Origin: an uncultured euryarchaeote
GTDB taxonomy: Archaea > Thermoplasmatota > Poseidoniia > Poseidoniales > Poseidoniaceae
DNA length: 64,000 nt
Reading direction: 5' to 3'
NCBI GenBank assembly: GCA_937915175.1
Contig: CALDNA010000050.1
Location: forward strand, 11,581 to 75,580
The position numbers and the translations under genes are program-made. The notes under the pieces were generated by a model. It searched no databases. It saw only the letters and a list, made by a program, of their open reading frames with translations, and was not told the origin of the DNA. Positions 25,545-43,466 of the stretch are shown here, one piece after another (within the stretch, counting starts at the first letter, position 1; each line of letters starts with the position of its first letter).

Positions 25545-26717
25545 ATGGCCAAGACATCCCCTGAGAACGGTGATGACAATGCCATCAATGAAGATGAAGA
25601 AATCAATCAAGCCGTCGCCGAACTTGAAGGCATTCATCCGATCGCTGAGGCCAACGCCAAAGCGGCCCCAACAAAGGCAATCGACCCGATTGATGAGGAC
25701 CCATTTGATGAACTCACAACTGAGGAAATGACTGAACAACTTCAGCGCAGCGGTCGGATGGTTATCGATACGTGCATGGACATTCGGCGCGGTGAAAACG
25801 TACTGATTGTGTGCGACCCTACAACCGGAGACATTGGTCAAGCCTTGCACGAAGCAGCAAACAGGCGCTCCGACCGAGTTCTCCTGATTGTCATGCCGAA
25901 AGCGCGCCATCACGGGGAGGAACCACCCGCACCGGTGGCGAACTTGATGAGGCAACAGCAAGTTGTGATTGCCCCCACCCGTTACTCGCTCACTCACACC
26001 CGAGCCGTCCGCCAAGCGTTGAAAGATCGCGCCCGGGTTGCAACGATGCCTGGAATGACCAATGAAATGTTCAGCAGAGGCGGTATGTCGGCGGATTTTA
26101 CTGATGTCAAGCGACGAATTGGGAACCTACAGCCTCATCTGCGGCGACGACGCATTCTCAATGTCAAGTCCGAACAGGGCACTGACGTCACGTTTGAAGT
26201 CAATTGGCGTGAATGGAAACTTGATGATAACGGAATTTGCAACCGCCCGAAAATGCTGACGAATTTACCCGCTGGGAAGGCGTTCATTATGCCCCGTGAA
26301 GGCACCATGAACGGCAAGGTTGTCATCGACGGTTCATGGGAATCAAATCTTGTCGACGAACCGGTAACCCTCACGATCGAAAACGGATTGGTCGTTGACG
26401 TCACAGGCGGAACAATCGCTGCCGCTATCCGCCAAGAATTTGGAGAAGCAGCAGGGCGTCTTCGGGTAAAGGACAGAGAAAACGTCTGGACCGTCGCTGA
26501 ATTTGGCATCGGAATGAACCCACAGGCTCGACTTTCAGGAAACGTATTGGAAGACGAAAAGAGACTCGGCACGTGCTATTTTGCTGTCGGTGATAACACC
26601 GCGCTGGGTGGCACATCATCCGTTGGAATTCACATTCCGGGCGTTCTCAAGGAACCAAGCCTCTGGTTTGACGACACCCAAGTGCTTGACAAGGGCGAAT
26701 TATTGTTGTCACTGTGA
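25545..26717 (+). CDS. aminopeptidase, AmpS/aminopeptidase-T-like (family M29), tentative
   Basis: GENVLIVCDPTTGDIGQALHEAA, NLPAGKAFIMPREGTMNGKVVIDG, EFGIGMNPQARLSGNVLEDEKRLGTCYFAVGDN...GIHIPGV. Start trimmed from 25086, because that extension overlaps the M32 gene on the opposite strand. Confidence 0.6.
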   Translation: MAKTSPENGDDNAINEDEEINQAVAELEGIHPIAEANAKAAPTKAIDPIDEDPFDELTTEEMTEQLQRSGRMVIDTCMDIRRGENVLIVCDPTTGDIGQALHEAANRRSDRVLLIVMPKARHHGEEPPAPVANLMRQQQVVIAPTRYSLTHTRAVRQALKDRARVATMPGMTNEMFSRGGMSADFTDVKRRIGNLQPHLRRRRILNVKSEQGTDVTFEVNWREWKLDDNGICNRPKMLTNLPAGKAFIMPREGTMNGKVVIDGSWESNLVDEPVTLTIENGLVVDVTGGTIAAAIRQEFGEAAGRLRVKDRENVWTVAEFGIGMNPQARLSGNVLEDEKRLGTCYFAVGDNTALGGTSSVGIHIPGVLKEPSLWFDDTQVLDKGELLLSL

Positions 26718-28352
26718 CCCTTGTGGAGCGTTCTGTGTTCCACAAATCGGACAGAACCTCCAGAACGGATCAAGACCGATGCCACAGCCTCGGCACATGA
26801 CACCAGATCGGATGGTTGGTTGAACCGAGGGCATGGTTGGATGCGGTTGATTCCACTGATGGTTTGACTGTTGTTGCTGATTCCAGCCTTGCTGTTGTTG
26901 TGCGGGTTGTTGTTGTTGATTCCACGCCTGTTGCTGTTGTTGTTGTTGATTCCATGCCTGTTGTTGCTGAGCGGCTTGTTGTTGAGCAGCTTGTTGCTGT
27001 TGATTCCAGTCCTGTTGCTGTTGTTGATCTGGTTGTGGCGTTGGTTCCTGAACGGGCTGTTCTTGCTGTGCAGGTTGATTCAATGGTTTTCGAATTGGTG
27101 CAACGGGCCGCGGGAGAGCAGCTGCTTTGTCCGCTGAAGAGGAAGCCATGAATTCAGAAAGCGAAACGCTCCCGTCCCCGTCTGTATCTGCTTCGGCGTG
27201 GAGCGCTGTGGCCTCTTCGACCGAAGTTCCTGTTGCAATCGCCAACTCTTCAATCGACAATTGCTCGCTGCCGTCGGTGTCAGCAGCGATGAAGTGTTCA
27301 GCAGCACTTGTGAACAATTCTTCTTCTGAAATCGGCATTTCAAGAGGGGTCAGTTCGGGTTGTGCCACGGGTGTTGGTTGTGGTTCTGGAACTGGTTCAA
27401 TCGCGGGTTCAGGAACCAGGACTTCCTCAACAACCGGTTCAGCCACTGGTTCAGCCACCGGAGCGGCTGCTTCTGCCTCTTCTTCTCCCATTCCAAGATC
27501 GAAGGCTCCTGCAAAAGCGTCTTGCGTGGCTTTGGCCACTTGCTTTTCGTTGGTTGTGTCAACCGTTGCTTCAACGGGTGTTAGGTTTGAGACAGGAGGC
27601 AGTTCCACCTTCGGTTGGGCGGGTTCTGCTTGGTTTGGAAGCGGAACTGGTGCTTCGGAGGGGAGCGGAACGCTCGGGGCAGCCTTGGTTGGCTTTTCTG
27701 AAACTGGCGCAGATTTGGCGGCCGTTGCAGAAGGTTTTGGCGGTAGAGCGACGCTTGAAGAAGCCGCTGTTCCACTCGCTAGCGTTGGCACAGGCAGGGC
27801 GTGGCCTGCAACGTCGAGCGCTGCTTCAAGTTCGTCGGCAATTGCTAACAGCGAATCGTGGTTTGATTCTGGTTGGGCCAAAAAGGATTCAAGACCTTGC
27901 AAATACCGGGTAACTTCACCCTTGCCTCCTGTAGCAAAAGCCACAGCGAGGAGTTTTAGAATCTTCATCGGGTCTGCAAAAGCAGTGAGTTTCGCCAGAT
28001 CATCAGCACTCATTGAATTCGATGCTCCCGAAAGACTGCCTGAGGAATCTGGCAAGCCAATGTAGTTCAGCAAAGGGTCCGGCATGGACATAATACCAAG
28101 ATGGCCTGCAACGAGATAGTAAATCTCGCCGCCTTCACATTGAATGCGTTCGCTTGCAGCGGTGAAATCAAATTCTCCGGGCAAAAGGACCACATCGGAG
28201 AGCACTTCGAAGAATTTCTCCATTGCTTCAGTGCGGTCCATGTCCATAAGCGTGTGAACCATATCCGAGGATTCAGTTACACCAAAGTAAGCCGCAGCAT
28301 CATCCACTTCAATGCCATCTGGCATTGATTCTCCGGGCAATTCATCGACCAT
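26709..28352 (-). CDS. cytosolic protein: novel N-domain, Pro/Glu/Val-rich linker, one EF-hand pair, Q/N-rich tract, C-terminal zinc ribbon
   Basis: No signal peptide or TM helix. EF-hand loops DTDGSEQLSIEE and DTDGDGSVSLSE. Q-rich tract QQQQQDWNQQQQAAQQQAAQQQQAWNQQQQQQQAWNQQQQPAQQQQGWNQQQQSNHQWNQ. Terminal CRGCGIGLDPFWRFCPICG. Confidence 0.8.
   Translation of the reverse strand: MVDELPGESMPDGIEVDDAAAYFGVTESSDMVHTLMDMDRTEAMEKFFEVLSDVVLLPGEFDFTAASERIQCEGGEIYYLVAGHLGIMSMPDPLLNYIGLPDSSGSLSGASNSMSADDLAKLTAFADPMKILKLLAVAFATGGKGEVTRYLQGLESFLAQPESNHDSLLAIADELEAALDVAGHALPVPTLASGTAASSSVALPPKPSATAAKSAPVSEKPTKAAPSVPLPSEAPVPLPNQAEPAQPKVELPPVSNLTPVEATVDTTNEKQVAKATQDAFAGAFDLGMGEEEAEAAAPVAEPVAEPVVEEVLVPEPAIEPVPEPQPTPVAQPELTPLEMPISEEELFTSAAEHFIAADTDGSEQLSIEELAIATGTSVEEATALHAEADTDGDGSVSLSEFMASSSADKAAALPRPVAPIRKPLNQPAQQEQPVQEPTPQPDQQQQQDWNQQQQAAQQQAAQQQQAWNQQQQQQQAWNQQQQPAQQQQGWNQQQQSNHQWNQPHPTMPSVQPTIRSGVMCRGCGIGLDPFWRFCPICGTQNAPQGSQ
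26845..27080 (-). repeat. CAA/CAG-rich low-complexity region with a recurring WNQ(Q)n unit
   Basis: The plus strand shows TTGATTCCA five times, embedded in (TTG/CTG)n runs. It encodes a ~77-aa Q-rich tract. Confidence 0.8.
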
Positions 28353-28434
28353 GATTCAACCCCTTACGCCTTGGCCACTTGTGCACTGTTTTTGAGGATG
28401 ATGCCACAGAGTGTTCGTGAAAAGCCCATTCTAA

Positions 28435-31400
28435 TCAGCGACTCCTTCCAAGATCAAAAATGGCTCGCGATTGAGGAGCAGACCAGCCTGTTTCTTGCAA
28501 TTGCATCATGATTGTGCGTTCAAGATCCCCATCATCGAGGGCTGTTCGAACCCAATCGGCTGCGGATTCTCGGTCCTCTGTTTGCCAGTCTTCAAAGATA
28601 CTCAAATCAATCTTGATGCGTGCTTTGCGAACTTTTGCTGAACCGTCATCCTCAGGTTCTTCTTCGGTTTGCACATCAGGGATTTTAGCAGCCGTTGTGC
28701 GCCCTCGCGGAGGCCCGGAAGGTGCCTTCGATTGCGGAGGTCCAGAAGATGGACTGCGCCCTGGAGGCCCGCTCTTTGCTGGACCTGCCCGACTTGGAAG
28801 AGAACGCCCTGAAGGCCCTGCTGCAGGTTTCGGGGTCGAGCGAGGTTGGGTGCGTTGTGGGGTCGCACGGGTCGAAGGGAAAGAAGAGGCGAAGCTCCCC
28901 TCGTCTTCATCTTCATCCCAGTCCTCGTCTTCATCGTCGTCATCATAATCGAAATCGTCGCTGCGCAATAGGCGCAAGAGAAGCATGACGAGAAGACCTA
29001 CGCCGAGCAAACCGCCTACGCCGGCGAGAATGGTCATTATTGGAGAGGAACCAAACAGACCACTGGAGGATTCATCATCGCTGGTTGCCTTTATTGGGCA
29101 TCCATCGCCGTAACCACCGTCAGACCCTGCGGGTTCATCTGGACAGTTGTCAAAGTAATCGGCCGTCCCATCGTTGTCTGAATCACTTTGAGTTGGGTCG
29201 CAACCTGTTGAATCAACATAGGTCTTGTAGGCAGGTTCTGTATCAGGGCATAAGTCTGGATCCTCACCTGATGCATTGTCACCGTAGCCGTCGCGGTCCC
29301 GGTCTTCCCACTGAGTTGGATTCCCAGCCATGCCTACGGGTTCAAAGAGGTCCCGATAGCCATCGCCGTCATCGAAGCATCCAAGGAAATCAATGTATGA
29401 AGTTCCATTTTCCAGCGGGCACTGATCTGCGTTGTTTCCTTCAAGGTTATCGCCGTAGCCATCGCCATCTTGATCGAACCATTGAGTTCCATCGGTTGGG
29501 AATGCATCCCCTTGTTGGTTGTCACGAAGCCCATTTGTTGCGTTGAGAACATAGGTGTAAGCACCCTTGAAGCCGTCTCCATCGAGATCATCTTCGAGGG
29601 CAGTTTCATCGGTGCAGCCTACATCATCGACCGGGAAACCGGTGGGCGTATCTGGGCAGTCGTCTTCCGCATCCAGAACACCGTCCCCATCGGTGTCAAT
29701 TTGGTTTGAAGCGCAACCGTTAGCGTCAACGTCTGTACCCGATGTAAACGGGCAGATGTCCTGTGGGTCGAACACACCGTCGCCATCGCTGTCGGCCACT
29801 CTTTGGGCCTCGCTGCATCCGGTTTCATCAACAATATCTTGATACTCAGTCTGGTCGCATTGATCCATATCGTTCATGATGCCATCCTGATCGTCGTCCA
29901 GTTGATTGTCGGCGCATCCAGCAGCGTTGACGGTCAAGCCTGAATCTGTGTTGGGGCACGTGTCTTCTTCATTGGAAACAAAGTCGCCATCGTCATCGCT
30001 ATCGTCGATGAAACGGCAACCAATGCCTGTTTCACCGTTGAGTGGAACTGTTCCGTTGAGAACACCGACTGTTGTTTTGCACTCGTCAGCCTGATAGCCA
30101 TCTGAGTTGTCACCAAACCCATCCTGATCGAAATCCAACCACTGGGTTGGTTCGAGTGGGAAGGCGTCGACCGAATCATCCCATCCATCGCCGTCGATGT
30201 CAGGGCACCCGTGAACTGGATTTGTCGAGTTGCCCCAAACGCCAGGGCATCCATCAAGCATCAGACCTGCACCGTTGTTGGTTTGGTCTTCATCTGATAG
30301 GTCATAGAATGCGGTCCAACTGTCAGGATAACCATCGCTGTCGTTGTCAACTGCTGCTGCAATGTTATCGGGGAACTTGTCCGGGTTTGTGGCCTCGTTG
30401 GAACTGTTATCTCCATAGCCGTCGCCGTCTGAATCCGCCCATTGCGTCGGGTCATTTGCCCACATGTCAGCGCCGGAACTTGTGTTCCACTCTAAGAATT
30501 CTCCAAGGTCCGAAGGGTCAGAAGACCCGTCGTTGTCGGTGTCAAGGCACCCGTTTCGGTCTCGCCATGAGGCGCCCCAATTCCACGGGCAAGCATCACC
30601 TGTCACAGAGTCGCTGTCGTTATCGCCCCAGCCGTCGCCATCATAATCGGAGTATTGTAAAGGGTTGAACGGGAACAAATCACCTGCTGGACTGTTTGGG
30701 TCAAGAGGGGTTGCGCAACAATCTGGACCGGAGTTGTCGCCATAGCCGTCACCGTCTGAATCCTTGGCCTGCTTCCAATTGAGGATAAACTCATCACCGC
30801 CAAAGTACGTTGCATCGTTATCCGACCAGCCATCTTGGTCGTAGTCCAGACAACCGAGGCGACCAAGCCAAGAACTGCCCGGACCATCCTGGCATCCATC
30901 AATGGTGTCCGCATAGCCATCTGCGTCATAGTCAGAGCAGCCATGAACATAGAACGAAGACGATGCTGCTGCGTTAGGGCATTCGTCACCAAACGGCCCG
31001 TTGGCGTTATCGCCGTAGTTGTCACCATCGCTGTCGGCCCATTGATTGCCAAGCAACGGCAAGTCATCGACGAGGTCGAAAATTAGATCCCGATCGGTAT
31101 CGACATAGATTCGAAGAACACCGACGTCATCGAGGATGTCATCCCAATAAGCAAGGTGAATGGTTCCATTTCCATCAGTTTGTGCCCCTGTTTGACTTCC
31201 AACAGTACGGTAACCAAAGGCGAGGCTCGACCAGGTGCTGTTGGATTGATTCGCTCGATGCTTCGAAATTGTGTTCCAAGTGAGTTCGTTGTTTGAGCCG
31301 CTGCTCGTCATGAGCAAATAGTGGTCGTCCATCACCACAAGGTCCCAAGCGCCCTCGAGGTTTGAAGCAGGCTGTGGGGCATTAAGCGGCGACCACACCG

Positions 31401-34400
31401 TGCTGTTCACGCGGCTGTGCAAAGAGGGGAGGAGGCTTGAATCACTGTGGACTGCCATCATTGGCTGCTGACCACCAATAAGATCGAGGTTGAATTGATT
31501 GGTGCTTCCGGGAAGTTGCGCCGTGTAACTTGTCCAATTGCTTGCGTTTGGGCTTAATTCATGGACCGATAGGGTTCCCGTTGTGGTCAAAACCGCAGCC
31601 ATGATTGTTCCGTTTGGCCCAAGAGCAAGTCGCAGGTCAGAAGAGAAGTCGGAAAGGGGAGCAATCGAATGAACATCAACGGCGCTCCCATTCATCACCC
31701 ACAACGAAAGGTTGGAGGTGGTTTCATCGCTTGTCACCAAGAGGATTGCGAGTGAGCCATCAGCGAGGTAGGCGGCTGATTGTTGATTGGAAACGACCGA
31801 TCCGGATGAAGAGAGGTTATCGAAGCTCCAAGCGCTTGATGCCGCTGGTTGACGGGCGATTTCTAACACGTTATTTGATGCATCTCGATAGATCAAAACG
31901 GTTTCATTGTTGGTTGAGGCCAAGCCCTGGGTCATGACTGAAACAGGTCCATCAAGGCTGATTGAAGAGCGTACCATCGAGGTCGTCCATCCATTTTCAG
32001 TTTCAATAGAGGTGAACAGTTGGTTTGTACCTGCCGAGGCGTAAGCGAGCCTTTGTTGGCCCAACACATCGAGGTTGGAGCCAAGGTGTTCGCCAAATTG
32101 GCCGGTGCTGACGAGCGTCTGCTCCACAGCAGTGTGGCCAAGTATGGAACGAAGAATCAAGCCGTTTTGAGCATCTGCTTCAAGGATGATTGGGCGCCCA
32201 GACTCTGTAACGCTGAAGGCATAGCGTTGGGATTGATTGCTGCTCTCAACGACGGTGGTTTCTTTCCAAACTCCCGCAGGCGTTCCGTCGTTGACGTGTT
32301 CGCTGTACAAGGAAGCGTTGTTGTCAAAGGTAAGGAACATGCTGGTTTCACCGCGCTTGGAGGTGCTGAGGTCCAATTGGGTAAGGTTTCCGTCATGCAA
32401 GAAGGAAGTGGCTTCCCAATCCCGTTCGGAGTGGATTTGATACACCAAAGTTGTCGGATTTGTGGACAAATCATGGCGGCTGAGAATAATTTCGCTGAGC
32501 CCGTCGCCGTCGATGTCCCCCTGCGTTGCCGCAAGAAGTCCGATGTTCTCACCAGTTTGACCCGTTGCCAAAAGTTCCCAGTCTGAACGCAAACCAATCG
32601 AAGAGCCGAGAATTAATTCCACCTTACCGCTGTCGCCAGGGTTGGCTTGCATGATTAAAACATCATCATAGCCATCTTCGTTCACGTCACCAGCAGGCTC
32701 TATTGTACGTCCAATCAAGGCGTTACTTTGGCCCGACTCGAGGGAATAATCTGGAGCCGAAGAAGCAATCCCTGATCCTGTACCATAGTAGGCCCATATC
32801 TTTCCGCTCCGATACGCTGTACCATTGAATGGCTCGTTGAACATGAAATCATCATACCCGTCCGAATTGACATCGCCAAGGTAGTTAATCGTCGATCCCA
32901 TTAATTGCCCTTGAATATTGGACACAATGCTTTGATCGAGGGTTCCATTGTATCCGTTCTGGCTGCCAAAGAAGATTTCAATTGATGAATAACCAAGTGG
33001 ATTATCAAAATCGCCGGTGTTTGAGACCAGTAAATCGCTCATCCCGTCCCCATTCAAATCCCCATTGGAGGCAAAAGATTGACCAAACATTGGCCCAGAT
33101 CTGCTTTGAGTGATGTTGCGCAGGTGGTCAAGGCCACTTGCGCTTCCGTTGAAAATTAGAATTTTCCCGTGGTTTGTCTTTACGTCGGTCACCTGCTCGA
33201 CGTACCCTCGAGCTGAGGCGACAAGGTCTGCCATTGAATCGCCGTTCATGGTGACTGAGGCGCTGAGCTTCCACCCAAGTTGTTCGGCATCATTACCCGA
33301 GGTGTTCCACCAAGCGTTTGACTCGAGACCGCTGCTGTTGCCAAGGTAAACCTGAATTCGACCTGGCGCACCGGTAAAGTTCTCGCTCGTATCGTTCCAA
33401 CCCGGGGCACCAATCGCAACATCGTGGTAGCCATCGCCGTTAAAATCTCCAACTGCAACACCGTGGGCGAACAATTCATGTTCCATTTCGCCTTGAAGAA
33501 TCAAGTCTGGTTGTTGTGCGGAGCCATCGCCTAAAGCAGATGCAACGCCCGTGGTTGAACCGTAGCGGACGAGCACTCGCCCCGTATCCGAAGCATTTCC
33601 GTCATGATAGGGTTCAGCGATGAGAACATCATCGAATCCATCGCCGTTGAAATCGCCCATTACAACAGATCCTTGGCCCGATTCCTGCCCACCAGTGAGG
33701 TTGAGGCTCGGAGTTGGGTTGATCCGCCCGGTTTCTTGACCAGAGAGGCTGCGCAGCAAGGACACTTCGACTTGATTCAGAGCGGGACTGGTCGTTGTTA
33801 CAATTTGCTCGAGCGCATTTGCATCAAGCCCCATTCCGATGTGTGACCGTAGGTCATCGCTGCGTGCCAATACACGATGATCGTAAGATGAACCATCTAC
33901 GCGGATCAATCGAACTTCGCCCGCTTCAGGCGCGACATAAGCAAGGTGAGCAACCATGTTGTGATCGATAGCGAGTTCGATGTCTTCGCCCACGGGGCCG
34001 ATGTCAAGAAGAGCATGCGACCAGCGTGTGCCGCTGAAATTTAATTGCCACAGGGATTCGTTTGAATCCCTGAACACGCCCCATTCGAGTTCATTTTCTC
34101 GAAGGTTGAGTCTGAAATCTGTTGGGTTGACGTCTTCGAGGATGGTTCGGGTGAGCCATGTGGTTTCTAAGTAGACTTGGCCAGCGTAGGCGACACGGGC
34201 CACCTTGATGTCTTGACCATCGGCATACATGATGTATGGACGGCCGTTTTCACTGATGGCCAGTGCGCAATCGACGAGCGTTTCTTCGGTGCTTGGTGCT
34301 ACGTTATCAACAACAGCATCGGTCCAAGATCCTGTAAAGGTCCGGCTTGCATAATGCACTTCACCTTCGACCGTGCTCCAGCAGAAGTTCATTTTCTCAC

Positions 34401-34722
34401 GCCCAGTAATCACAACATCGGGGGTTCCAGGCGTTATGTTCTCAAACTGATGAAGGGTTGATTGCGTCCATGCGTCCAGTCCAGACTCTTGGCGAACTTC
34501 GGCTGATTCAAGTCCGTCAAAGGAGATGAACTCACCAGCAAAGTCGTGACCATAGCCACTTGAAAAGGGAACATGTGCGCTCGTTGGCATCGCTTTGATC
34601 TCTTCCTGCAAGGCATCGACCGGAGTTGAATGCGAGACAAGCGGTGCGAAGGATTGAATCAAAAAAAGTACGGTGAGTGCGAGAGCGAGAGTAGGAAAAG
34701 ATACACTACGCTCAACGGCCAT
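28435..34722 (-). CDS. giant type-I surface protein: signal peptide, 7x FG-GAP (integrin-alpha-like) repeats, unassigned beta-rich region, ~18 thrombospondin-type-3-like Ca-binding repeats, TM helix, 176-aa cytoplasmic tail
   Basis: Start set at MAVERSVSFPTLALALTVLFLIQSFAPLVS (34722). FG-GAP loops: GDFNGDGFDDVLIAEP, GDFNGDGYHDVAIGAP, MNGDSMADLVASA, GDLNGDGMSDLLVSN, GDVNSDGYDDFMFNEP, GDVNEDGYDDVLIMQ, GDIDGDGLSEIILS. TSP3-like loops include DSDGDNYGDN, DYDQDGWSDND, DSDGDGYGDNS, DTDGDGVLDAED. TM helix IMTILAGVGGLLGVGLLVMLLLRLL. Confidence 0.9.
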   Translation of the reverse strand: MAVERSVSFPTLALALTVLFLIQSFAPLVSHSTPVDALQEEIKAMPTSAHVPFSSGYGHDFAGEFISFDGLESAEVRQESGLDAWTQSTLHQFENITPGTPDVVITGREKMNFCWSTVEGEVHYASRTFTGSWTDAVVDNVAPSTEETLVDCALAISENGRPYIMYADGQDIKVARVAYAGQVYLETTWLTRTILEDVNPTDFRLNLRENELEWGVFRDSNESLWQLNFSGTRWSHALLDIGPVGEDIELAIDHNMVAHLAYVAPEAGEVRLIRVDGSSYDHRVLARSDDLRSHIGMGLDANALEQIVTTTSPALNQVEVSLLRSLSGQETGRINPTPSLNLTGGQESGQGSVVMGDFNGDGFDDVLIAEPYHDGNASDTGRVLVRYGSTTGVASALGDGSAQQPDLILQGEMEHELFAHGVAVGDFNGDGYHDVAIGAPGWNDTSENFTGAPGRIQVYLGNSSGLESNAWWNTSGNDAEQLGWKLSASVTMNGDSMADLVASARGYVEQVTDVKTNHGKILIFNGSASGLDHLRNITQSRSGPMFGQSFASNGDLNGDGMSDLLVSNTGDFDNPLGYSSIEIFFGSQNGYNGTLDQSIVSNIQGQLMGSTINYLGDVNSDGYDDFMFNEPFNGTAYRSGKIWAYYGTGSGIASSAPDYSLESGQSNALIGRTIEPAGDVNEDGYDDVLIMQANPGDSGKVELILGSSIGLRSDWELLATGQTGENIGLLAATQGDIDGDGLSEIILSRHDLSTNPTTLVYQIHSERDWEATSFLHDGNLTQLDLSTSKRGETSMFLTFDNNASLYSEHVNDGTPAGVWKETTVVESSNQSQRYAFSVTESGRPIILEADAQNGLILRSILGHTAVEQTLVSTGQFGEHLGSNLDVLGQQRLAYASAGTNQLFTSIETENGWTTSMVRSSISLDGPVSVMTQGLASTNNETVLIYRDASNNVLEIARQPAASSAWSFDNLSSSGSVVSNQQSAAYLADGSLAILLVTSDETTSNLSLWVMNGSAVDVHSIAPLSDFSSDLRLALGPNGTIMAAVLTTTGTLSVHELSPNASNWTSYTAQLPGSTNQFNLDLIGGQQPMMAVHSDSSLLPSLHSRVNSTVWSPLNAPQPASNLEGAWDLVVMDDHYLLMTSSGSNNELTWNTISKHRANQSNSTWSSLAFGYRTVGSQTGAQTDGNGTIHLAYWDDILDDVGVLRIYVDTDRDLIFDLVDDLPLLGNQWADSDGDNYGDNANGPFGDECPNAAASSSFYVHGCSDYDADGYADTIDGCQDGPGSSWLGRLGCLDYDQDGWSDNDATYFGGDEFILNWKQAKDSDGDGYGDNSGPDCCATPLDPNSPAGDLFPFNPLQYSDYDGDGWGDNDSDSVTGDACPWNWGASWRDRNGCLDTDNDGSSDPSDLGEFLEWNTSSGADMWANDPTQWADSDGDGYGDNSSNEATNPDKFPDNIAAAVDNDSDGYPDSWTAFYDLSDEDQTNNGAGLMLDGCPGVWGNSTNPVHGCPDIDGDGWDDSVDAFPLEPTQWLDFDQDGFGDNSDGYQADECKTTVGVLNGTVPLNGETGIGCRFIDDSDDDGDFVSNEEDTCPNTDSGLTVNAAGCADNQLDDDQDGIMNDMDQCDQTEYQDIVDETGCSEAQRVADSDGDGVFDPQDICPFTSGTDVDANGCASNQIDTDGDGVLDAEDDCPDTPTGFPVDDVGCTDETALEDDLDGDGFKGAYTYVLNATNGLRDNQQGDAFPTDGTQWFDQDGDGYGDNLEGNNADQCPLENGTSYIDFLGCFDDGDGYRDLFEPVGMAGNPTQWEDRDRDGYGDNASGEDPDLCPDTEPAYKTYVDSTGCDPTQSDSDNDGTADYFDNCPDEPAGSDGGYGDGCPIKATSDDESSSGLFGSSPIMTILAGVGGLLGVGLLVMLLLRLLRSDDFDYDDDDEDEDWDEDEDEGSFASSFPSTRATPQRTQPRSTPKPAAGPSGRSLPSRAGPAKSGPPGRSPSSGPPQSKAPSGPPRGRTTAAKIPDVQTEEEPEDDGSAKVRKARIKIDLSIFEDWQTEDRESAADWVRTALDDGDLERTIMMQLQETGWSAPQSRAIFDLGRSR

Positions 34723-34865
34723 GAAGCCCTGTGACCCCCCCTCATTGAAAACGCTTGTCGAAAAATGCCCATCATGACCCCCGTAGGGGGTCAGGTGAAC
34801 AACCGCCAACATCGACCAAAAAACGCAGGGGAGAAGTTGACAAAAGAGGAACTTCTCGTGAGGTC

Positions 34866-35516
34866 ATGAACGGCAAGCGTTGGCTCATTTGTGCCGATGG
34901 CGTGTGGCCTTCAGAGCAAGTTTGGCGGCCGCTCAAAGAACGAGCTGACGTAATCCTAGCATGCGACGGTGCCCTTCATCAATGCATTGAGCGGGGCTTT
35001 GAACCGAATGTTGTGATTGGTGACATGGACAGTGTTGGTGAAGAAGCCATGAAAAAAACGCAGAAAACCATCGAATGGCTGAACGTAGAACACCAAGATT
35101 CCAGTGATCTAGCCAAAGCAATTGATCATGCCAGCCAACACGCCCCGCTGAAAATTGACATCATCGGCGTGGAAGGCGGGGCAATGGGCCATCAACTCGC
35201 CCCTTATTTCGCCCTGATGGAAGCGCCTCCAAACACCACAATTTATTCGGCTGAAGCTCGCATTGTGTGCGTGAAAGATTCAATGATAGAACTCCACTCT
35301 ATAGAAAAAGGTAGCCGCGTTTCCTTGTTTGCTTTTGGTGCTGCCAATGGGGTCACATTGGCGGGGTGCGAATGGGTGCTTGAAAACGAAACGCTCGACA
35401 CGGGCACAAGGGGTCTCAACAACAAATCTCTCGCCTCGAAAATCAGACTCGTCGTTGAACAAGGAGCCGTTCTTTTGTGCGTTGAACCGGATCAAAGCGG
35501 ACCTTTCGGAAGATAA
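34866..35516 (+). CDS. thiamine pyrophosphokinase
   Basis: ILACDGAL...VVIGDMDSV (GDxDS), HQDSSDLAKAI (DQDxTDxxKA-like), IIGVEGGAMGHQLA (GGRxDH-like). Start trimmed to ATG 34866. The 3' end overlaps the convergent gene by 25 nt. Confidence 0.8.
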   Translation: MNGKRWLICADGVWPSEQVWRPLKERADVILACDGALHQCIERGFEPNVVIGDMDSVGEEAMKKTQKTIEWLNVEHQDSSDLAKAIDHASQHAPLKIDIIGVEGGAMGHQLAPYFALMEAPPNTTIYSAEARIVCVKDSMIELHSIEKGSRVSLFAFGAANGVTLAGCEWVLENETLDTGTRGLNNKSLASKIRLVVEQGAVLLCVEPDQSGPFGR

Positions 35517-36355
35517 TCACGAAGCATCTCTGAAAACGATCCTTCGCCATCCCATTTTGAAGCATGTTCGTCAACCCGTGCATGCTCCATGGTCGATTCA
35601 AAGCCGCCCCAATCTTCGATCAATCCAAGGTTGTACGCTGCCTTTGGGGTGTATCCTGGCAAAAAGTTCCGCCAGGTGAACGGAACCCGACCGGGCGTGA
35701 TGAGGTTCACCATGCCAACGATGGAGGTGTTGCATGTGGTTAGGAAGGAGTGATACCATTCCCCTTTTTCAGCAAGGCGATTGACTTTTTGGGTCAACGC
35801 CAACAGCAACGCTTTTTCCTTGCCCGGGGGCGTTATTGCACGGAACATGTAATCCTTATTTCCCCGCCCGTTGGTGCGCAGTCCAAGGACATCCCGTTCA
35901 AAACCGACTAACAAATACAGTTCGAAGTGCCGCCAGAAACCTGGCCAAGGGTGGTACCGTTGCCCCTTTCTGCGCCGTGCCTCAAAAGAGAATGACAAGC
36001 ATGTGCCATCATTGAATTCGAAGGTGAGGAAGGTGTGAGCCATACCGTGCAGGCTGTGAAAGTGATCGACGACGAACCAGACGTCCTTGATCTCATCAGC
36101 GTTCACTTCTACCGTATCAGCCCAGTCTTCATCTCGATCCCGAGTGGTTCGCCAGAAAAAATCACGGATGTTGGAGTAACGAATCACTGACCCTTCTATT
36201 TCTGCAGTGGTTGTTTTTTCACAATCTGAATTCCAATTGGCATCCAGCTGGGGCACGCGAGGACGCACCCGCACCATCCATATCAGAACGCAGAGACCGA
36301 TGACAGTAATTTTGAAAGCCACCACATAGGCGAAGATCATCAACCATTGCGCCAT
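35492..36355 (-). CDS. N-terminally anchored DUF4105-like protein (tentative)
   Basis: TM helix MAQWLMIFAYVVAFKITVIGLCVLIWMV, then HGMAHTFLTFEF...SFSFEARR...FELYLLVGFERD...WYHSFLTTCNTSIV. This resembles my recollection of the DUF4105 core with its ..N-C-T motif. Confidence 0.5.
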   Translation of the reverse strand: MAQWLMIFAYVVAFKITVIGLCVLIWMVRVRPRVPQLDANWNSDCEKTTTAEIEGSVIRYSNIRDFFWRTTRDRDEDWADTVEVNADEIKDVWFVVDHFHSLHGMAHTFLTFEFNDGTCLSFSFEARRRKGQRYHPWPGFWRHFELYLLVGFERDVLGLRTNGRGNKDYMFRAITPPGKEKALLLALTQKVNRLAEKGEWYHSFLTTCNTSIVGMVNLITPGRVPFTWRNFLPGYTPKAAYNLGLIEDWGGFESTMEHARVDEHASKWDGEGSFSEMLRDYLPKGPL

Positions 36356-36361
36356 CTTACC

Positions 36362-37681
36362 TCACCACTTGTGCCAAATACGCAAATCCTGATCCCACCA
36401 ATCCATTGCCCCATCCGGTTGTTGGCGCCAAAGGGTACCACTGTCGTCGGTTGTGGTCGGCATGCCTTGCGGGTCGGGTGAACCATCGGGCAGAATTGTT
36501 GGTGTTGGGCCGAGGGAACGTAGAGCCGGTTGTTCACCCTCTTCCTTGACCCGTACAAGCATGAAAAAGACGATGAAGGCGACGATCAAACCAAGCGCCC
36601 CGATTGAATACCAGCCAACTGATTCCGTATCTGTTTCTTCACCGAATGAACGGCTTGGAAGGGCTGCAGATTCATCGGCTGTGAGGTTGGCACCGGGTGA
36701 CCGAACGAGGTTAAGGCCGTGGATTGTACGGATTTGTTCATTGTTGATCACTTCGAGGCTGATCAGATGGACCCCTGCAGGCAACACTGAGCAGTCATAC
36801 GTCTCGCTGGAAGTGCCAGGTTGTTGCTTGCCTTGAACAGCCCAAATCTTGTCAAACGTGGTGAAGTCGACACCCGCCATATTCGGGACCAAGGTGATCA
36901 GGCACGGTGTGTCAGTTGAGTTGCCTCCGCCGCGAACATCGAGCGAAAAGGCGGGTGCAGGTCGATTGTGAATGGTGATGTTAAGCCAAGATTCAGTCGT
37001 CTGACCAAGGTCGTTACGATAGGCTTCCTTCAGCATGTATTCGCCGGCTGGCCAGCGAGAGCAATTGAGGGCTGTTTGGTTGTCGAGCACGGTGAAGGGA
37101 GCGCCGGTAAACGTTCGAACACCTTCCGCCGCATACCGAGGGCCTGTTTCATCAGCAAACACACGGTCAATCATGCATGCATCGCCTGTTTCAATCCAAG
37201 CAGGTGCATCCAGATCAAGGGTGATTTGAGGGGTTTTCAACGCTGGGCGAAGCACATAAGTCGGCAATTGAACCGTGGTGATTGTTTCACCGTCTTGGTT
37301 GACGATCTCAAGGCGTAATGCATGCTCACCCTGTGCCCATGCATCATACACCAGGCTGGCGTTTGATTGGCCAGAAAAGGACATGCTGCGGCTGTCGTGA
37401 ACTTCACGATCTTTGTGAACACCATACAAACGAAGTTCGATGTTGGTGAAGTCGTTGGTTGTGTTCATGATGACCACAACTCGAATGGCGTCAGGTTCCC
37501 CGTCTTGATTCAAATCCAAAGTATCGTTTCGAAGTGCAATGAGGTTCAATCCTTCCGCTTCAAGCGCGTCATCAACGGCAGAGGGTTCGGCCGAGGCCGT
37601 GAGGCTCAACCCGAGTGGTGCCACCATGCTGCAGGTGAGAATCAACAACATCAGCACGCTTCGCCTCTGAAGTTCAAACAT
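36362..37681 (-). CDS. type-I membrane protein with ~3 Ig-like/beta-sandwich ectodomains and a Trp-rich cytoplasmic tail
   Basis: Signal peptide SVLMLLILTCSMVAPLGLSLTASA, TM helix WYSIGALGLIVAFIVFFMLV, tail ...GTLWRQQPDGAMDWWDQDLRIWHKW. The start overlaps the upstream gene's stop by 8 nt (ATGTTTGA). Confidence 0.7.
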   Translation of the reverse strand: MFELQRRSVLMLLILTCSMVAPLGLSLTASAEPSAVDDALEAEGLNLIALRNDTLDLNQDGEPDAIRVVVIMNTTNDFTNIELRLYGVHKDREVHDSRSMSFSGQSNASLVYDAWAQGEHALRLEIVNQDGETITTVQLPTYVLRPALKTPQITLDLDAPAWIETGDACMIDRVFADETGPRYAAEGVRTFTGAPFTVLDNQTALNCSRWPAGEYMLKEAYRNDLGQTTESWLNITIHNRPAPAFSLDVRGGGNSTDTPCLITLVPNMAGVDFTTFDKIWAVQGKQQPGTSSETYDCSVLPAGVHLISLEVINNEQIRTIHGLNLVRSPGANLTADESAALPSRSFGEETDTESVGWYSIGALGLIVAFIVFFMLVRVKEEGEQPALRSLGPTPTILPDGSPDPQGMPTTTDDSGTLWRQQPDGAMDWWDQDLRIWHKW

Positions 37682-40220
37682 CTTCGTTCACCTCCATGGC
37701 TCCTGCTGGCATCGGCAAAGGAGGAAGGTCCTGCAACGCAATCATTCCGGGAAGCGGAAGCTCTTGGCCCATTTCTTCAAGGGTGCGGGATTGTTTTTCT
37801 TCAAACAAAGCGTCTTCGAGATCTGCATCATCCTTGCCTGAGCGAACAAAGAGCGCTGCTCCTGCCCCTGCGATGAATCCTAAGCCGATAACGAGGTATG
37901 TGAGCCAAGAGGCTTCTGGGCTTTCACCAAGAATGGCAACCGCTGCAGCAAACTCGCCATATTCATCCGACCAGCCATCGTTGTTCGAGTCAACGCACCC
38001 TTGAATGTCACGTTTCGAACTACCAGCCTGCTCTGGACAATCATCCCTGAACGCACCAAGAGGAACGTCACCGAAACCATCACCATCAAGGTCGCGCCAT
38101 TGCAGTGCCTCGGTAGGGAATGCGTCTGCTGTGCCTGCGGGATGGGCCGCCCAAGAAGCGGTTGGGTCTGACCAACCATCGCCATCGGTGTCCCTGCACC
38201 CAAGTCGGTCGAGCATGGAAGTGCCTCGGACTTCAGGGCAAGCATCGCCTTGGTTACCGTCTTCATTGTCGCCGTAGCCGTCGCCATCTGAGTCGCGCCA
38301 TTGAGTCGGTTCGTGGATGAAAGCATCGCCTAGATCCGACCAGCCATCGCCGTCTGTATCAGCACAACCCCAACGGTCTCCACCTGAAGAAGGCCCAACT
38401 GAAGTGCCGGCCTGATCGGGGCACACGTCGGCGGTTGTACCGCGTGGATTGTCGCCGCGGCCATCGCCATCGATGTCATGCCATTGAGTTGGATCCATGG
38501 GCCAAGCATCGCCGCGCCCTCCAGGGCTTGCAAGCCATGCGCTTGTTGGGTCGGACCAGCCGTCTTGATCGCTGTCGGGGCAGCCCCATCGATCAAACGT
38601 GGAGGAACCTTCTGTGGTTTTGCATCCATCGCCGCGATAAGCATCTCGGAAGGTTTGGCCGTCGAAGTACTCCGTGTTGTCCCCATAGCCGTCGTCATCG
38701 GTGTCGTACCACTGGCTCGAGTCTTCGGGGAAGGCGTCAGAAAAGCCTGCTGGATGAGCAATCCAATCGTCTGTTGGGTTTGAAAATCCATCCTTATCGG
38801 TGTCTCGGCAACCCAAGCGGTCGGCGTAGGAAATCCAACTGGATTCAACTTCTTCAGGGGAAGAGAATACGCATACATCGCCCTCGTATCCTTCGAGATT
38901 ATCGCCATAACCGTCGCCGTCGGTGTCCCTGTACTGAGAAGGGACGAATGGGAAATCGTCGACTTGAGAGGCGCCGTAGGTTCGATTGTCACCCCAGCCG
39001 TCTTCATCTGTGTCCAACCACTGTGTAGGGTTATCTGGGAAATCATCGACGAGGTTTGCGCCCTCGGTTTGGTTGTCGCCCCAACCATCAAAGTCGCGGT
39101 CGCGCCATTGTGAATCTTCGAGAGGGAAGGCGTCTGAACCGTTGCTGATGGTCCAATTGACATCACCATCGGAGTATGAATCGCCGTCAGTATCGGTGCA
39201 ACCGTAGCGATCACCGCTTGATGATCCTGTGATGAACGGGCAAGCATCCGGCATGGTTGCGTTGTAGACATGGATGCCAATTCCCCATGCTTCACGGGTT
39301 ACATTCCAGTCGTCGTCTGCCCAATTATCGCCATAACCATCAGCGTCGGTGTCGTTCCACTGGGTGCTGTCAAGCGGGAAAGCATCGCCCATGCCAGTTG
39401 GATGAGCGTACCAGGCCGTTACGCCATCAAGACCACCTGGGTCTTCATCAGAAAATCCATCGCCGTCCGAGTCAAGGCATCCGAATCTGTCCATGGTCGA
39501 GTAACCCCGTCGATACGGGCAATGATCGCCCTGATAGCCGTCAAGATTGTCACCGTAATTGTCGTTATCGCTGTCGAGCCATTGAGTTGGTTCGAGATAG
39601 AATGCGTCCGCACCGTTTTGTGCCAACCAACTGGTGTCTGGGTCGGACCAACCGTCGCCATCCGTATCGATGCAACCCTTTCGGTCGTTCGAGGAAGAGC
39701 CAACGGTGTCGTCGCAGTCGTCATCGATGTCGACAAATCCGTCTTCATCGCTGTCTCGATTGGTTTTGTCAATGGACGGTGTGATGGTGTAATCATAGCC
39801 ATCGTTGCACCACGAATCGTCAGCCTGGATTTTGACATAGACATAACTCTGAGTGGAAACGGTGGTCGACAGCGTCTTCGATGCGGCGTTGTCATCCACG
39901 TAGGCATCGACGATGGTTCCGCCCTGAGGGTTGAGCAAAGAAATACGCCCCATCCAGCCGTCGCCCGGGCACCACCAAGCCGGCCCGTTCATGGTGCCGG
40001 AAAATGAGATTTGCACGATGTCGCCTTTCTTCGCCTCGACCTTCCAATAGTCGGCCTGATCGTTGCCAGCATCGCAATCCGGATCGCAGACATAACCGCT
40101 GGACGTCACTCCATCCGTGAGGGGTGTTGCGCTTTGAATATCGTTGTCCGCTTGGACCGGTGGCAAGGTGCACAGCAACAGCGCGGCGAGCCAGAGGGCA
40201 AGCACACGCTTCGCGAGCAT
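37674..40220 (-). CDS. type-I surface protein: PPC-like N-domain plus ~18 thrombospondin-type-3-like Ca-binding repeats, TM helix, acidic tail
   Basis: Signal peptide MLAKRVLALWLAALLLCTLPPVQA. N-domain DQADYWKVEAKKGDIVQISF is PPC-like (tentative). Alternating units follow: GC.DTDGDGWSDP...DAFP.E.TQW.D.DGDGYGDN. TM helix LTYLVIGLGFIAGAGAALFV. Confidence 0.85.
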   Translation of the reverse strand: MLAKRVLALWLAALLLCTLPPVQADNDIQSATPLTDGVTSSGYVCDPDCDAGNDQADYWKVEAKKGDIVQISFSGTMNGPAWWCPGDGWMGRISLLNPQGGTIVDAYVDDNAASKTLSTTVSTQSYVYVKIQADDSWCNDGYDYTITPSIDKTNRDSDEDGFVDIDDDCDDTVGSSSNDRKGCIDTDGDGWSDPDTSWLAQNGADAFYLEPTQWLDSDNDNYGDNLDGYQGDHCPYRRGYSTMDRFGCLDSDGDGFSDEDPGGLDGVTAWYAHPTGMGDAFPLDSTQWNDTDADGYGDNWADDDWNVTREAWGIGIHVYNATMPDACPFITGSSSGDRYGCTDTDGDSYSDGDVNWTISNGSDAFPLEDSQWRDRDFDGWGDNQTEGANLVDDFPDNPTQWLDTDEDGWGDNRTYGASQVDDFPFVPSQYRDTDGDGYGDNLEGYEGDVCVFSSPEEVESSWISYADRLGCRDTDKDGFSNPTDDWIAHPAGFSDAFPEDSSQWYDTDDDGYGDNTEYFDGQTFRDAYRGDGCKTTEGSSTFDRWGCPDSDQDGWSDPTSAWLASPGGRGDAWPMDPTQWHDIDGDGRGDNPRGTTADVCPDQAGTSVGPSSGGDRWGCADTDGDGWSDLGDAFIHEPTQWRDSDGDGYGDNEDGNQGDACPEVRGTSMLDRLGCRDTDGDGWSDPTASWAAHPAGTADAFPTEALQWRDLDGDGFGDVPLGAFRDDCPEQAGSSKRDIQGCVDSNNDGWSDEYGEFAAAVAILGESPEASWLTYLVIGLGFIAGAGAALFVRSGKDDADLEDALFEEKQSRTLEEMGQELPLPGMIALQDLPPLPMPAGAMEVNEDV

Positions 40221-40298
40221 GGTTGCCCAAGTGGTGATGTGCTAATGAACACTACCCGTCGGAAAGAACACCCTACGGGTGACTTGAGAATCCTCTTC

Positions 40299-42086
40299 TC
40301 AAGACTGATATCGCGCTGCGAGAATCAACTCGTCTGCGGAAAAGAACGGCATGCTCAACCCGCTTTCGGAGCTGCTGTTGACCACGCTGTGAGCTGTGGC
40401 GATGTCGCCACGAACGAACTTGATGTACCGTTGTTCTTCATTTTCTTCGAACGGGTGAAGCCCGACGTTTTCTTGATAGGCAATACCAATCCAAGAACCA
40501 TCTGGCGATGTGACGGTCTCAAAGAAATCATGCAAAGCGTGCGTATCGCCGCTGCTTTCTTCGTAATCAGTAACGGTGTGAAGGGGGGTCGGATCAACGA
40601 TTTTGAAATCCCAAACATCCCCTTCCATTGGGTGGTGAAGGGCGCCTGCATACAGGTACCAATCCTTGCCAGCAACATAGCCATCTTCAGAGTTATTTTG
40701 ATCATAATCTAAACCATAAAACGCTAGGCTGACCACCTGATCTTCAGAGATTGAAACAAAGGGATACATCTGAATTCCACGATCGAACGCCGTTGCATTC
40801 CAACTTGACCAAGCGCTGCCGTTGTCGTATGAAACTGCAACCCTCAACTCCCAAGCGCCTGTGTTTCCATTTGGACAATCCGCCCAAGCCACGACGACCA
40901 TGCCACCTTCGTTGTTGTTGACAACGGGGTAACCCTCTGGACAATTGCCTTCTCGTGGTCCAACTTCAACGGGGCTTTGCCAAGTGCCTTCGCCAGGCCC
41001 CGGGCCTGTTCCTCGACCGTAGTCCGCACTGACGCGCACTTGCACGTGCCCGCTTGCTGAGTCTGCATCTTCTTGAGCCACGAACACATACGGGCCGTCG
41101 TTTTGAGCGGAGATGGTTGACCAACCTCCGGGCATAGCGTAGCATTGTGAATAGGGGGCTCTTCCGGTTTCGGAATGATAGTACCAGTATCGCCCTGAAT
41201 CACCAGTGCATTCAGGAGGACTTGCTCCCGAATTGCCGAGGTAGTGAATGATGCCATCGCCTTGTGCTGCAACCCACGGCCTGTCATCCGCAGCCATGGT
41301 TTGCATGCGTTCGCAAACGGTTGGTGAAATGTAGGTGTTCCCACCGTCTTCAAACATGTGCCACCAGTTGTCTTCCAATGTGGTATCAAGGAAGTAAACG
41401 ACGTCGTTGCCATCGACGGCAATATCGCCTTCGTCTCCGAGGCATTCGGAACCGGAACCAGCAACGGATCCAAGAATGGAATTGGTCATTGGGCCAGGGG
41501 TTGGTTCGAAGTTATCGCCATGGCCCCATGTTTCGCCACCATCGTTAGAAATCCAGAACCATGAGGCCCAATAATCCCAAGATGTCATTTCTCCATCTTC
41601 GCATGCGTACCACTGATCTAGATCTCCGCCGATGACGGGAGCGAACGGGTTGCCTTCTCCTCCCCAACGCAAATCCTTGTGAGCGGTCACGAAGAGGTTG
41701 CCTTGCTTGTCGATTGAAAGGCTTGGCTCATAGCCAATGCCATAGCCTTCATAGCCTGCATCCTGCCCGTTATCAGGGTCGATGCATTCGTCGTGACGAG
41801 GCATGTATTCTGGTTCGCCCCAAGAGAAATAGACCTGATCGCCGACTAAATTTTCTTGTGCTTCGGCTGGATTCAGACCGTTGGCGATTGATGTGCCCCA
41901 AAGGGCTGAAAGAAGCAAGGCGATGAGGGCAACTGCAATGGTGGCGCCAATCGCCATGTTGAGTTCCTTAGCCGCACTCGAACCCGCTGACGGAGCCTCT
42001 GTTTGAGGGGATTGAACAAGAATCGCATCCTCTGCCATGAAGGTCGGTACCTTCGCTTCTCTTTGGAGGTTCCCACTCAGCGTCAA
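40299..42086 (-). CDS. N-terminally anchored extracellular BNR/Asp-box (sialidase-like) beta-propeller protein
   Basis: TM helix MAIGATIAVALIALLLSALWG. Asp-box motifs SNDGGETWG, SYDNGSAWS and SADYGRG. Rich in W/Y/G. The start may be M1, M17 or M44. Confidence 0.8.
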   Translation of the reverse strand: MTLSGNLQREAKVPTFMAEDAILVQSPQTEAPSAGSSAAKELNMAIGATIAVALIALLLSALWGTSIANGLNPAEAQENLVGDQVYFSWGEPEYMPRHDECIDPDNGQDAGYEGYGIGYEPSLSIDKQGNLFVTAHKDLRWGGEGNPFAPVIGGDLDQWYACEDGEMTSWDYWASWFWISNDGGETWGHGDNFEPTPGPMTNSILGSVAGSGSECLGDEGDIAVDGNDVVYFLDTTLEDNWWHMFEDGGNTYISPTVCERMQTMAADDRPWVAAQGDGIIHYLGNSGASPPECTGDSGRYWYYHSETGRAPYSQCYAMPGGWSTISAQNDGPYVFVAQEDADSASGHVQVRVSADYGRGTGPGPGEGTWQSPVEVGPREGNCPEGYPVVNNNEGGMVVVAWADCPNGNTGAWELRVAVSYDNGSAWSSWNATAFDRGIQMYPFVSISEDQVVSLAFYGLDYDQNNSEDGYVAGKDWYLYAGALHHPMEGDVWDFKIVDPTPLHTVTDYEESSGDTHALHDFFETVTSPDGSWIGIAYQENVGLHPFEENEEQRYIKFVRGDIATAHSVVNSSSESGLSMPFFSADELILAARYQS

Positions 42087-42094
42087 TGAAGGGC

Positions 42095-43360: not shown

Positions 43361-43466
43361 GGAGGTGCGAATGTGTGCTTCGGTTTCAATGTCACCGAAT
43401 GAAGACCCCTCAGATTCAAATTCTCGCTCCAATGCTTTCAAGGGGGTTGCGTTTGTGGCAAGGTAC

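Follow-up and report, generated by a model that had tools for sequence, protein, structure and literature searches.

Marine Group II (MGII) comprises uncultured archaea of global abundance that are thought to be partly attached to particles and phytoplankton, and Poseidoniales are the dominant archaea of the surface ocean. Genes encoding 'thrombospondin' and Ca-dependent adhesion domains have been reported in MGII (Rinke et al., 2019, PMC6461757; Orsi et al., 2015, PMC4511931, citing Iverson et al., 2012). Integrin-type FG-GAP propellers with seven blades are found in bacteria, and the examples retrieved by Chouhan et al. lack a transmembrane (TM) segment (Chouhan et al., 2011, PMC3192720). 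LINKIN/ITFG1 is a single chain with a TM helix whose seven FG-GAP repeats are atypical and whose intracellular domain has interactors in the cytoplasm (Kato et al., 2014, PMC4275582). Here we analyze a 64,000-nucleotide stretch of contig CALDNA010000050.1 (hereafter the window) from Candidatus Poseidoniaceae, Marine Group II-a (MGIIa), in which the gene for a giant type-I surface protein (the giant protein) is followed on the same strand by the gene for a cytosolic Ca-binding protein (the partner). We tentatively favor reading the two genes as a module of Poseidoniales that joins a receptor to a scaffold for anchoring or clustering, and not as a signaling cascade. The link between the two proteins is plausible but unproven. 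The two genes are:

28435..34722 (-), giant type-I surface protein, 2095 amino acids (aa) from M31 of the long open reading frame (ORF), from the ORF listing and public calls
26709..28352 (-), partner, an acidic cytosolic protein of 547 aa without a TM helix, from the ORF listing

Both ORFs lie where a first-pass annotation of the window had located them. All elements of the giant protein and the partner are kept in 50-80 other species and the locus anatomy is therefore not due to chance; it is solid and real. The long ORF of the giant gene reaches up to 34812 (28435..34812, minus strand). The residues ahead of M31 are unconserved and half gapped in an alignment of 50 orthologues, and most public gene calls are 2095 aa long, which identifies 34722 as the true start, in line with the initial gene model. 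Residue numbering of the giant protein is counted from M31. Public entries name it 'FG-GAP-like repeat-containing protein' or 'hypothetical protein' and it clusters with MDB9834458.1, while the exact public match of the partner, HII10481.1, is a 'hypothetical protein'. In the literature we came across no account of the tail module, of the partner or of the two as a pair, and searches for an integrin-like tail/adaptor pair in archaea or for an S-layer in MGII returned nothing relevant. Identity and conservation figures given below refer to 50 species loci, gap measurements to 77 loci and synteny to 80 GTDB species loci together with divergent MGIIb-like loci.

The cytoplasmic tail of the giant protein ends in a conserved folded module. 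The tail is 176 aa long in the window and 162-211 aa across orthologues, and contains the acidic block, the P/S/G/R linker and the terminal module that the first-pass annotation had quoted:

28888..28965 (-), juxtamembrane poly-acidic/aromatic block, RSDDFDYDDDDEDEDWDEDEDE..., net charge -16
28633..28887 (-), basic P/S/G/R repeat-like linker, variable in sequence, net charge +11, identity 0.33
28438..28632 (-), terminal cytoplasmic module, a conserved extended segment and a three-helix bundle, from AlphaFold2 (AF2) and conservation

The start of the tail reads LLRLLRSDDFDYDDDD, and the juxtamembrane acidic block is also present in the divergent loci L003, L005, L006 and L087. Based on a 43-sequence alignment, AF2 models the terminal module as a short extended segment followed by three helices, with a predicted local distance difference test score (pLDDT) of 86.5. 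The module is better conserved than any other segment of the giant protein, its identity to the window being 0.71; values elsewhere are 0.44-0.63 for the parts of the ectodomain, 0.35 for the TM helix and 0.33 for the linker. A profile search of 1.84 billion representative proteins yielded 56 matches, and all full-length ones are 2006-2134 aa long and carry the module at their extreme C-terminus. As judged from these matches, the module is restricted to the giant family. Its being both the most conserved segment and unique to this family argues for a specific cytoplasmic function. Invariant residues comprise F/E/Q/D/R/W...MQLQETGW..QSRAI in the tail and IEVDDAAAYFG in the partner. The module has no Pfam match, and Foldseek returned no significant fold match in the PDB (best E 4). 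An MIT domain was considered and rejected: the MIT domain of spastin is matched by PDB profile only at E 0.27, Foldseek gives no MIT domain at E<=10 and Pfam gives none. Across the PDB profile searches of the locus the one other match, to a TAL effector, is repeat-driven and has no passing stretch; this match and that to spastin are taken to reflect chance or composition. Assemblies break or gain N-gaps in the tail linker (28633..28887, minus strand, in the window; positions 875-926 of L005 and 5583-5592 of L006; L091-L100).

The partner is a cytosolic multidomain protein with a canonical EF-hand pair. Its length of 547 aa is as initially described, and it comprises the following elements:

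28263..28352 (-), N-terminal motif, aa 1-30, GIEVDDAAAYFGVTESSD nearly invariant, identity 0.72, not folded in the AF2 model
27798..28262 (-), all-alpha domain, aa 31-185, AF2 pLDDT mostly >90
27318..27797 (-), acidic P/E/V-rich linker with conserved islands (SVPLP twice, KQVAKATQDAFAGAFDLG), from charge and alignment
27138..27317 (-), EF-hand pair, aa 346-405, both loops canonical, from Pfam on the fragment, identity 0.75
26838..27137 (-), conserved LPRPVAPIRKPL segment, then a Q-rich tract with spaced Trp (GWNQQQQ repeats), from composition
26712..26837 (-), C-terminal zinc ribbon, CRGCGIGLDPFWRFCPICG, CxxC...CxxC motif, identity 0.67

TM and signal-peptide-like segments of both proteins were called by hydropathy. 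No such stretch is seen in the partner, whose highest 19-residue hydropathy is 1.41, which agrees with the cytosolic placement proposed at first. The net charge is -25 for the N-domain, -18 for the linker and -13 for the EF region. Conservation is concentrated in the N-terminal motif, the EF-hand pair and the zinc ribbon while the linkers drift. Residues 1-26 have pLDDT values <50, yet aa 13-30 (GIEVDDAAAYFGVTESSD) are near-invariant, and a near-invariant segment that is modeled as unfolded suggests a candidate linear binding motif. Residues 1-195 as a whole are modeled from 62 sequences as all-alpha with about ten helices (mean pLDDT 83.7). The N-terminal domain has no Pfam match and the all-alpha domain no significant PDB fold match (Foldseek best E 0.27, TM <=0.25). 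The idea of a homotypic interaction was examined with hhalign, in which tail module and partner N-domain show no homology (E 0.72).

In the remainder of the partner, the linker sequence drifts with the islands SVPLP (twice) and QDAFAGAF being kept, and an AAAF/AFAGAF linker motif is shared with L003, L087 and L090. The two EF loops, DTDGSEQLSIEE and DTDGDGSVSLSE, are both canonical 12-residue loops (D1, D3, D/S5, E12) and were found in 48/48 scored orthologues. Pfam EF-hand_1 scores 27.9 bits on the fragment, above its cut-off of 25.4, and EF-hand_7 scores 28.6, slightly under its cut-off of 30; the EF-hand pair of the first-pass annotation is thus upheld. The Q-rich tract and the terminal CxxC...CxxC motif are likewise present. 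The tract keeps its composition and not its sequence, with a mean Q fraction of 0.32 (range 0.16-0.46) and 3-5 spaced Trp (median 4) across orthologues. The zinc-ribbon motif CRGC...CPIC is kept, also in L003, L087 and L090, and is matched weakly by Pfam Zn_Ribbon_1 and DZR (17 bits, under the cut-offs). In L090, an Illumina-assembled MGIIb-like contig, an in-frame TAA at ~1197-1199 in the EP-rich linker divides the partner into two same-frame ORFs of 291 and 187 aa, which could represent a real split, a sequencing error or read-through.

The gene pair is conserved throughout Poseidoniales. Relatives of the partner N-domain turned up in 225 species genomes in a genome scan, and the matches listed all belong to Poseidoniales. 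Orthologous partners are ~500-560 aa long and consist of the N-domain, the EF pair and the zinc ribbon, and in all loci with enough DNA the partner is preceded, at a distance of 20-119 nt, by the end of a ~2100-aa ORF that bears the tail module. The two genes adjoin in the 80 GTDB species loci and in the divergent MGIIb-like loci where the DNA suffices, so that the synteny anticipated in the initial description is borne out. The Iverson MG-II genome (L013, CM001443.1) encodes a partner that is 82% identical, with the giant gene in place, and the pair and the tail layout persist in divergent loci at 41% (L003), 37% (L087), 45% (L089) and 40% identity (the MGIIb-like L090). Both architectures and the pairing are kept across MGIIa and MGIIb in all loci examined. 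Named matches include Candidatus Thalassarchaeaceae and all belong to Poseidoniales; neither protein has a named match outside the order, and the new domains have no relatives in Pfam or the PDB. The partner is singled out among the neighbors of the giant gene by the same strand, a short gap without an oligo-T run, the orphan status of both genes and the same phyletic range.

The gap between the two genes is short and contains conserved elements:

28353..28434 (-), intergenic gap, 82 nt, from sequence
28359..28365 (-), Shine-Dalgarno (SD)-like AAGGGGT, 7-13 nt before the partner ATG, from sequence
28389..28396 (-), promoter-like box CTCAAAAA, 44 nt upstream of the partner ATG, CATCAT before it, family pattern YWYAARWR

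The 82-nt gap and its AAGGGGT element had both been recognized at first pass. Over 77 loci the gap has a median length of 81 nt (range 20-119 nt), an SD-like motif lies <=18 nt from the partner ATG in 57/77, and a T5 (oligo-T) run occurs in 0/77; no consensus RNA structure was found in the gap. The conserved box and the CATCAT were seen across the orthologous gaps of L007-L086. YWYAARWR occurs at -40 to -47 in 69/77 loci compared with 2.9+-1.7 in shuffles, where the pattern was defined post hoc and the loci are related. The box is probably a B recognition element (BRE)/TATA-like promoter followed by a short leader that contains the SD-like motif.

The ectodomain of the giant protein combines an integrin-alpha-type propeller with a Ca-loop stalk. 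Its parts and the membrane anchor are:

34627..34722 (-), signal-peptide-like N-terminus, aa 1-32, hydropathy peak at aa 3-32
33703..34626 (-), N-terminal beta-repeat region, aa 33-340, no family assignment, no Pfam match at E<=5
32353..33702 (-), FG-GAP region of the seven-blade integrin-alpha type, aa 341-790, from Pfam, PDB sequence matches and loop positions
31033..32352 (-), middle beta-repeat region, aa 791-1230, no family assignment, no Pfam match at E<=5, from self-alignment
29068..31032 (-), TSP3-like Ca-loop stalk, aa 1231-1885, about 15-20 DxDxDGxxD loops, 26 Cys, from motif count and PDB match
28966..29040 (-), single TM helix, aa ~1895-1919, hydropathy maximum 2.59

The signal-like N-terminus and the helix at aa ~1895-1919 are the only two hydrophobic stretches, which supports the topology first suggested for the giant protein, with the signal peptide and the single TM helix as described, the propeller and Ca repeats outside and the long tail inside. 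The extracellular location is further indicated by an excess of N-glycosylation sequons in the ectodomain (36 compared with 19.2+-4 in shuffles) and by the confinement of Cys to the TSP3-like stalk (26/28 of the ectodomain Cys), the tail having zero sequons and zero Cys. The Pfam profiles FG-GAP (4.6e-15) and FG-GAP_3 (5.5e-8) match, and the PDB sequence matches of aa 341-790 are exclusively integrin-alpha propellers, with alpha-IIb at the top (1.2e-13). Orthologue alignment gives seven FG-GAP repeat units, and seven blades are supported by homology. The initial count of exactly seven Ca loops holds for the blades but not for the loops: the window has six canonical ones (aa 357, 426, 555, 617, 679 and 736), and that of blade 3 is degenerate (NGDSMADL), being canonical in some orthologues, which carry 5-7 canonical loops each.

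The two regions flanking the propeller (33703..34626 and 31033..32352, minus strand) are related to each other and built of ~60-residue repeats. The relationship of aa 33-340 to aa 791-1230 is detected by hhalign (E 7e-5, probability 63%), and shifted self-alignment reveals the ~60-residue periodicity within aa 791-1230 (E 2.6e-5), a region that also carries 13 sequons against 6.8 expected. Together they may form a second beta-propeller-like domain into which the FG-GAP propeller is inserted. The stalk is the best-conserved part of the ectodomain (identity 0.63). It contains 15 strict D.[DN].[DN]G..[DN] loops and a few more degenerate ones. Pfam TSP_3 (PF02412) scores 17 bits and stays under its cut-off of 25. 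A TSP3-bearing OmpA-family structure (5wtl) matches at 2.4e-6 and NCBIfam TraB/PA1041 models match weakly. 'TSP3-like' is a fair label for what appear to be repeats of bacterial type. The 'adhesin' label given in the first-pass annotation is itself an inference. The giant gene is an almost indel-free, single-copy core gene (gap fraction 0.01-0.03), unlike typical variable adhesins, and its product may be a constitutive envelope component. Seawater Ca2+ is about 10 mM and constant, and the ectodomain Ca loops, which face seawater, are probably structural rather than regulatory.

These features suggest how the two proteins could work together. In the receptor-plus-scaffold arrangement, the three-helix bundle of the tail would serve as a docking site and the protein encoded next door would be its likeliest ligand, with contact perhaps made via the partner N-terminal motif or electrostatically with the basic linker. 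The partner would self-associate through its Q/W-rich tract and zinc ribbon and would thereby cluster or anchor the surface protein from inside. Its EF-hands could confer sensitivity to cytosolic Ca2+ while the Ca loops of the ectodomain would be permanently loaded and play a structural part. Pfam and NCBIfam scans of the partner found no enzymatic or DNA-binding output domain (kinase, helix-turn-helix). Lacking a recognizable output domain, the partner fits a scaffold better than a signal transducer, and this is the reason for preferring a receptor-plus-scaffold pair over a signaling cascade.

A less probable explanation is that the two genes are neighbors by inheritance only, the giant protein being a core component of the envelope or glycocalyx and the partner an unrelated cytosolic Ca/Zn-binding protein. 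The tail module would then serve the biogenesis, membrane retention or lateral packing of the giant protein itself. Several observations agree with this and weigh against a functional link. The unrelated housekeeping genes TPK (upstream) and NicX (downstream) are equally syntenic, and gene order from TPK through the giant gene and the partner to NicX is preserved throughout the order. Being adjacent is thus little evidence by itself and could reflect inherited gene order without a functional link. The box inside the gap indicates that the partner is probably transcribed from a promoter of its own, in which case a shared transcript is not required; read-through from the giant gene is neither demonstrated nor excluded by it. 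In a mirror-tree analysis the distance-matrix correlations track phylogeny without specific co-variation: the partial correlation of the tail module with the partner domains is 0.25-0.35, and that of a control, the TSP3 region with the N-domain, is 0.40. The partner N-terminal domain and the tail module are both acidic, so that simple charge complementarity applies to the basic linker only. A long tail is also not unique to the giant protein, as other type-I proteins in the window have tails of 53-114 aa. Finally, a single-copy gene with so few gaps suits a structural core gene over a variable adhesin. Inheritance alone does not readily account for two lineage-specific orphans with identical distribution, the same strand and a short terminator-free gap in all loci. 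Moreover, a cytoplasmic domain that is confidently folded and conserved to the maximum calls for a ligand, for which there is no nearer candidate than the partner.

The receptor-plus-scaffold reading has a more far-reaching version, which we regard as unlikely: Poseidoniales would possess a dedicated transmembrane adhesion receptor whose three-helix tail domain binds a Ca2+-sensing, self-associating scaffold encoded next door. If true, the integrin-adaptor link would have a prokaryotic counterpart of independent origin, through which attachment to particles or cells is coupled to the cell interior.

Still less probable is true integrin-style outside-in signaling, as the first-pass annotation had proposed, where binding of a ligand or Ca2+ to the ectodomain alters the tail and the EF-hand partner reads and relays the change. 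The integrin-alpha-type propeller, the TM helix, the conserved tail domain and the adjoining cytosolic Ca-binding protein are all consistent with such a mechanism, and topology, cytosolic neighbor and synteny stood up to analysis. The signaling part found less support. The partner has no output domain, and no vWA (betaI, beta-subunit-like) or integrin-beta domain is encoded among the 20 window ORFs scanned. The giant protein shows no thigh, calf-1 or calf-2 leg domains, with no Pfam match besides FG-GAP and nothing at E<=5 on aa 791-1230, and no membrane-proximal GFFKR-type motif was found in its tail. External Ca2+ is constant in seawater, and the stretch that separates the tail module from the TM helix, a variable and disordered linker of about 85 residues, makes conformational transmission through one helix implausible.

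That the terminal module is a separate ~80-aa gene and the long tail a false fusion is very improbable: 42 of its database matches are 56-149 aa long and some are flagged 'complete', but upstream of them the open frame extends to the linker and acidic block, or its only interruptions are scaffold N-runs, and the module forms the C-terminus of a ~2000-2400-aa ORF in 50 complete species loci as well as of the full-length representatives (2006-2134 aa), which refutes a stand-alone 79-aa gene. Dozens of spurious 'complete genes' of 56-149 aa have instead entered catalogues because short-read assemblies break in the repeat-like linker.

Further surface proteins are encoded around the locus. Upstream, 35492..43585 (-) is a conserved block of envelope-type genes. 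Its products are a GT4 glycosyltransferase, a protein with an Lnb_N domain and three membrane proteins, of which two are type-I (439 and 848 aa) and one has 595 aa. The Lnb_N gene and the two type-I genes occupy the same positions beside TPK and the giant gene in L001, L002 and L088. Four window proteins are type-I surface proteins with a signal peptide and a C-terminal TM helix:

36362..37681 (-), type-I surface protein, tail ending in ...DWWDQDLRIWHKW
37674..40220 (-), type-I surface protein, tail ending in ...MEVNEDV
44888..49747 (-), type-I surface protein, tail ending in ...DLDWDNV
54360..57584 (-), type-I surface protein, tail ending in ...DLGDVLFD

These acidic/aromatic tail ends resemble the juxtamembrane block of the giant protein and may represent a shared tail signal. 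Since all four carry tails of 53-114 aa, cytoplasmic tails are common in the source organism. The giant tail is the longest seen in the window and the sole one with an identified folded domain, being also the only one modeled. On the other strand, 6333..10007 (+) encodes a 1224-aa surface protein with a signal peptide, many EF-hands (EF-hand_1 5e-26) and a PGF-CTERM anchor, by sequence an extracellular, EF-hand-rich, archaeosortase-dependent protein. A long tail that is kept is therefore not the only option open to this organism.

The locus contributes two domains, the tail module and the all-alpha domain of the partner, that are new and match nothing in Pfam or among solved structures. It provides a concrete, order-wide candidate for MGII attachment, for which hitherto only lists of 'adhesion domains' were available, and it yields a hypothesis that is testable without culture, namely binding of the tail module to the neighboring protein and the effect of Ca2+ on it. 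It also accounts for an annotation error seen repeatedly, in which assembly breaks in the tail linker give rise to numerous spurious 'genes' of ~80 aa.

Among known systems, the yeast cell-wall stress sensors Wsc and Mid combine a rigid, glycosylated ectodomain and a single TM helix with a cytoplasmic tail that recruits Rom2, an adaptor from the cytosol with a defined output. Here the analogy is functional, without any sequence or domain relation, and the partner shows no visible output. Archaeal proteins anchored by PGF-CTERM and archaeosortase are likewise large Ca-binding surface glycoproteins, but they lose their C-terminal helix and have no cytoplasmic tail. The giant protein keeps its conserved 176-aa tail after the TM helix and has no PGF-CTERM motif by a model that does detect the motif elsewhere in the window. 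The thrombospondin and adhesion-domain genes reported from MGII are of the same kind and probably belong to the giant family itself; those reports record the presence of domains only and do not describe the tail, the module or the paired cytosolic protein (PMC6461757; PMC4511931).

With metazoan integrin alpha the giant protein shares seven FG-GAP repeats with Ca loops, its best PDB sequence matches, type-I topology and a cytoplasmic tail that could bind an adaptor. It differs by a far longer tail with its own folded domain, by a TSP3-like stalk in place of legs and by Ca loops in nearly all blades, as in bacterial propellers (Chouhan et al., 2011, PMC3192720). The bacterial integrin-type propellers (PMC3192720; VCBS superfamily, PMC8023676) are alike in having seven repeats and one Ca motif per blade, whereas the giant protein adds a TM helix and a conserved cytoplasmic domain. 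LINKIN/ITFG1 is metazoan, much smaller and devoid of a TSP3-like stalk, and its interactors are RUVBL1/2 and tubulin (PMC4275582). In overall logic it is nevertheless the nearest match to the giant protein, a resemblance that is architectural only.

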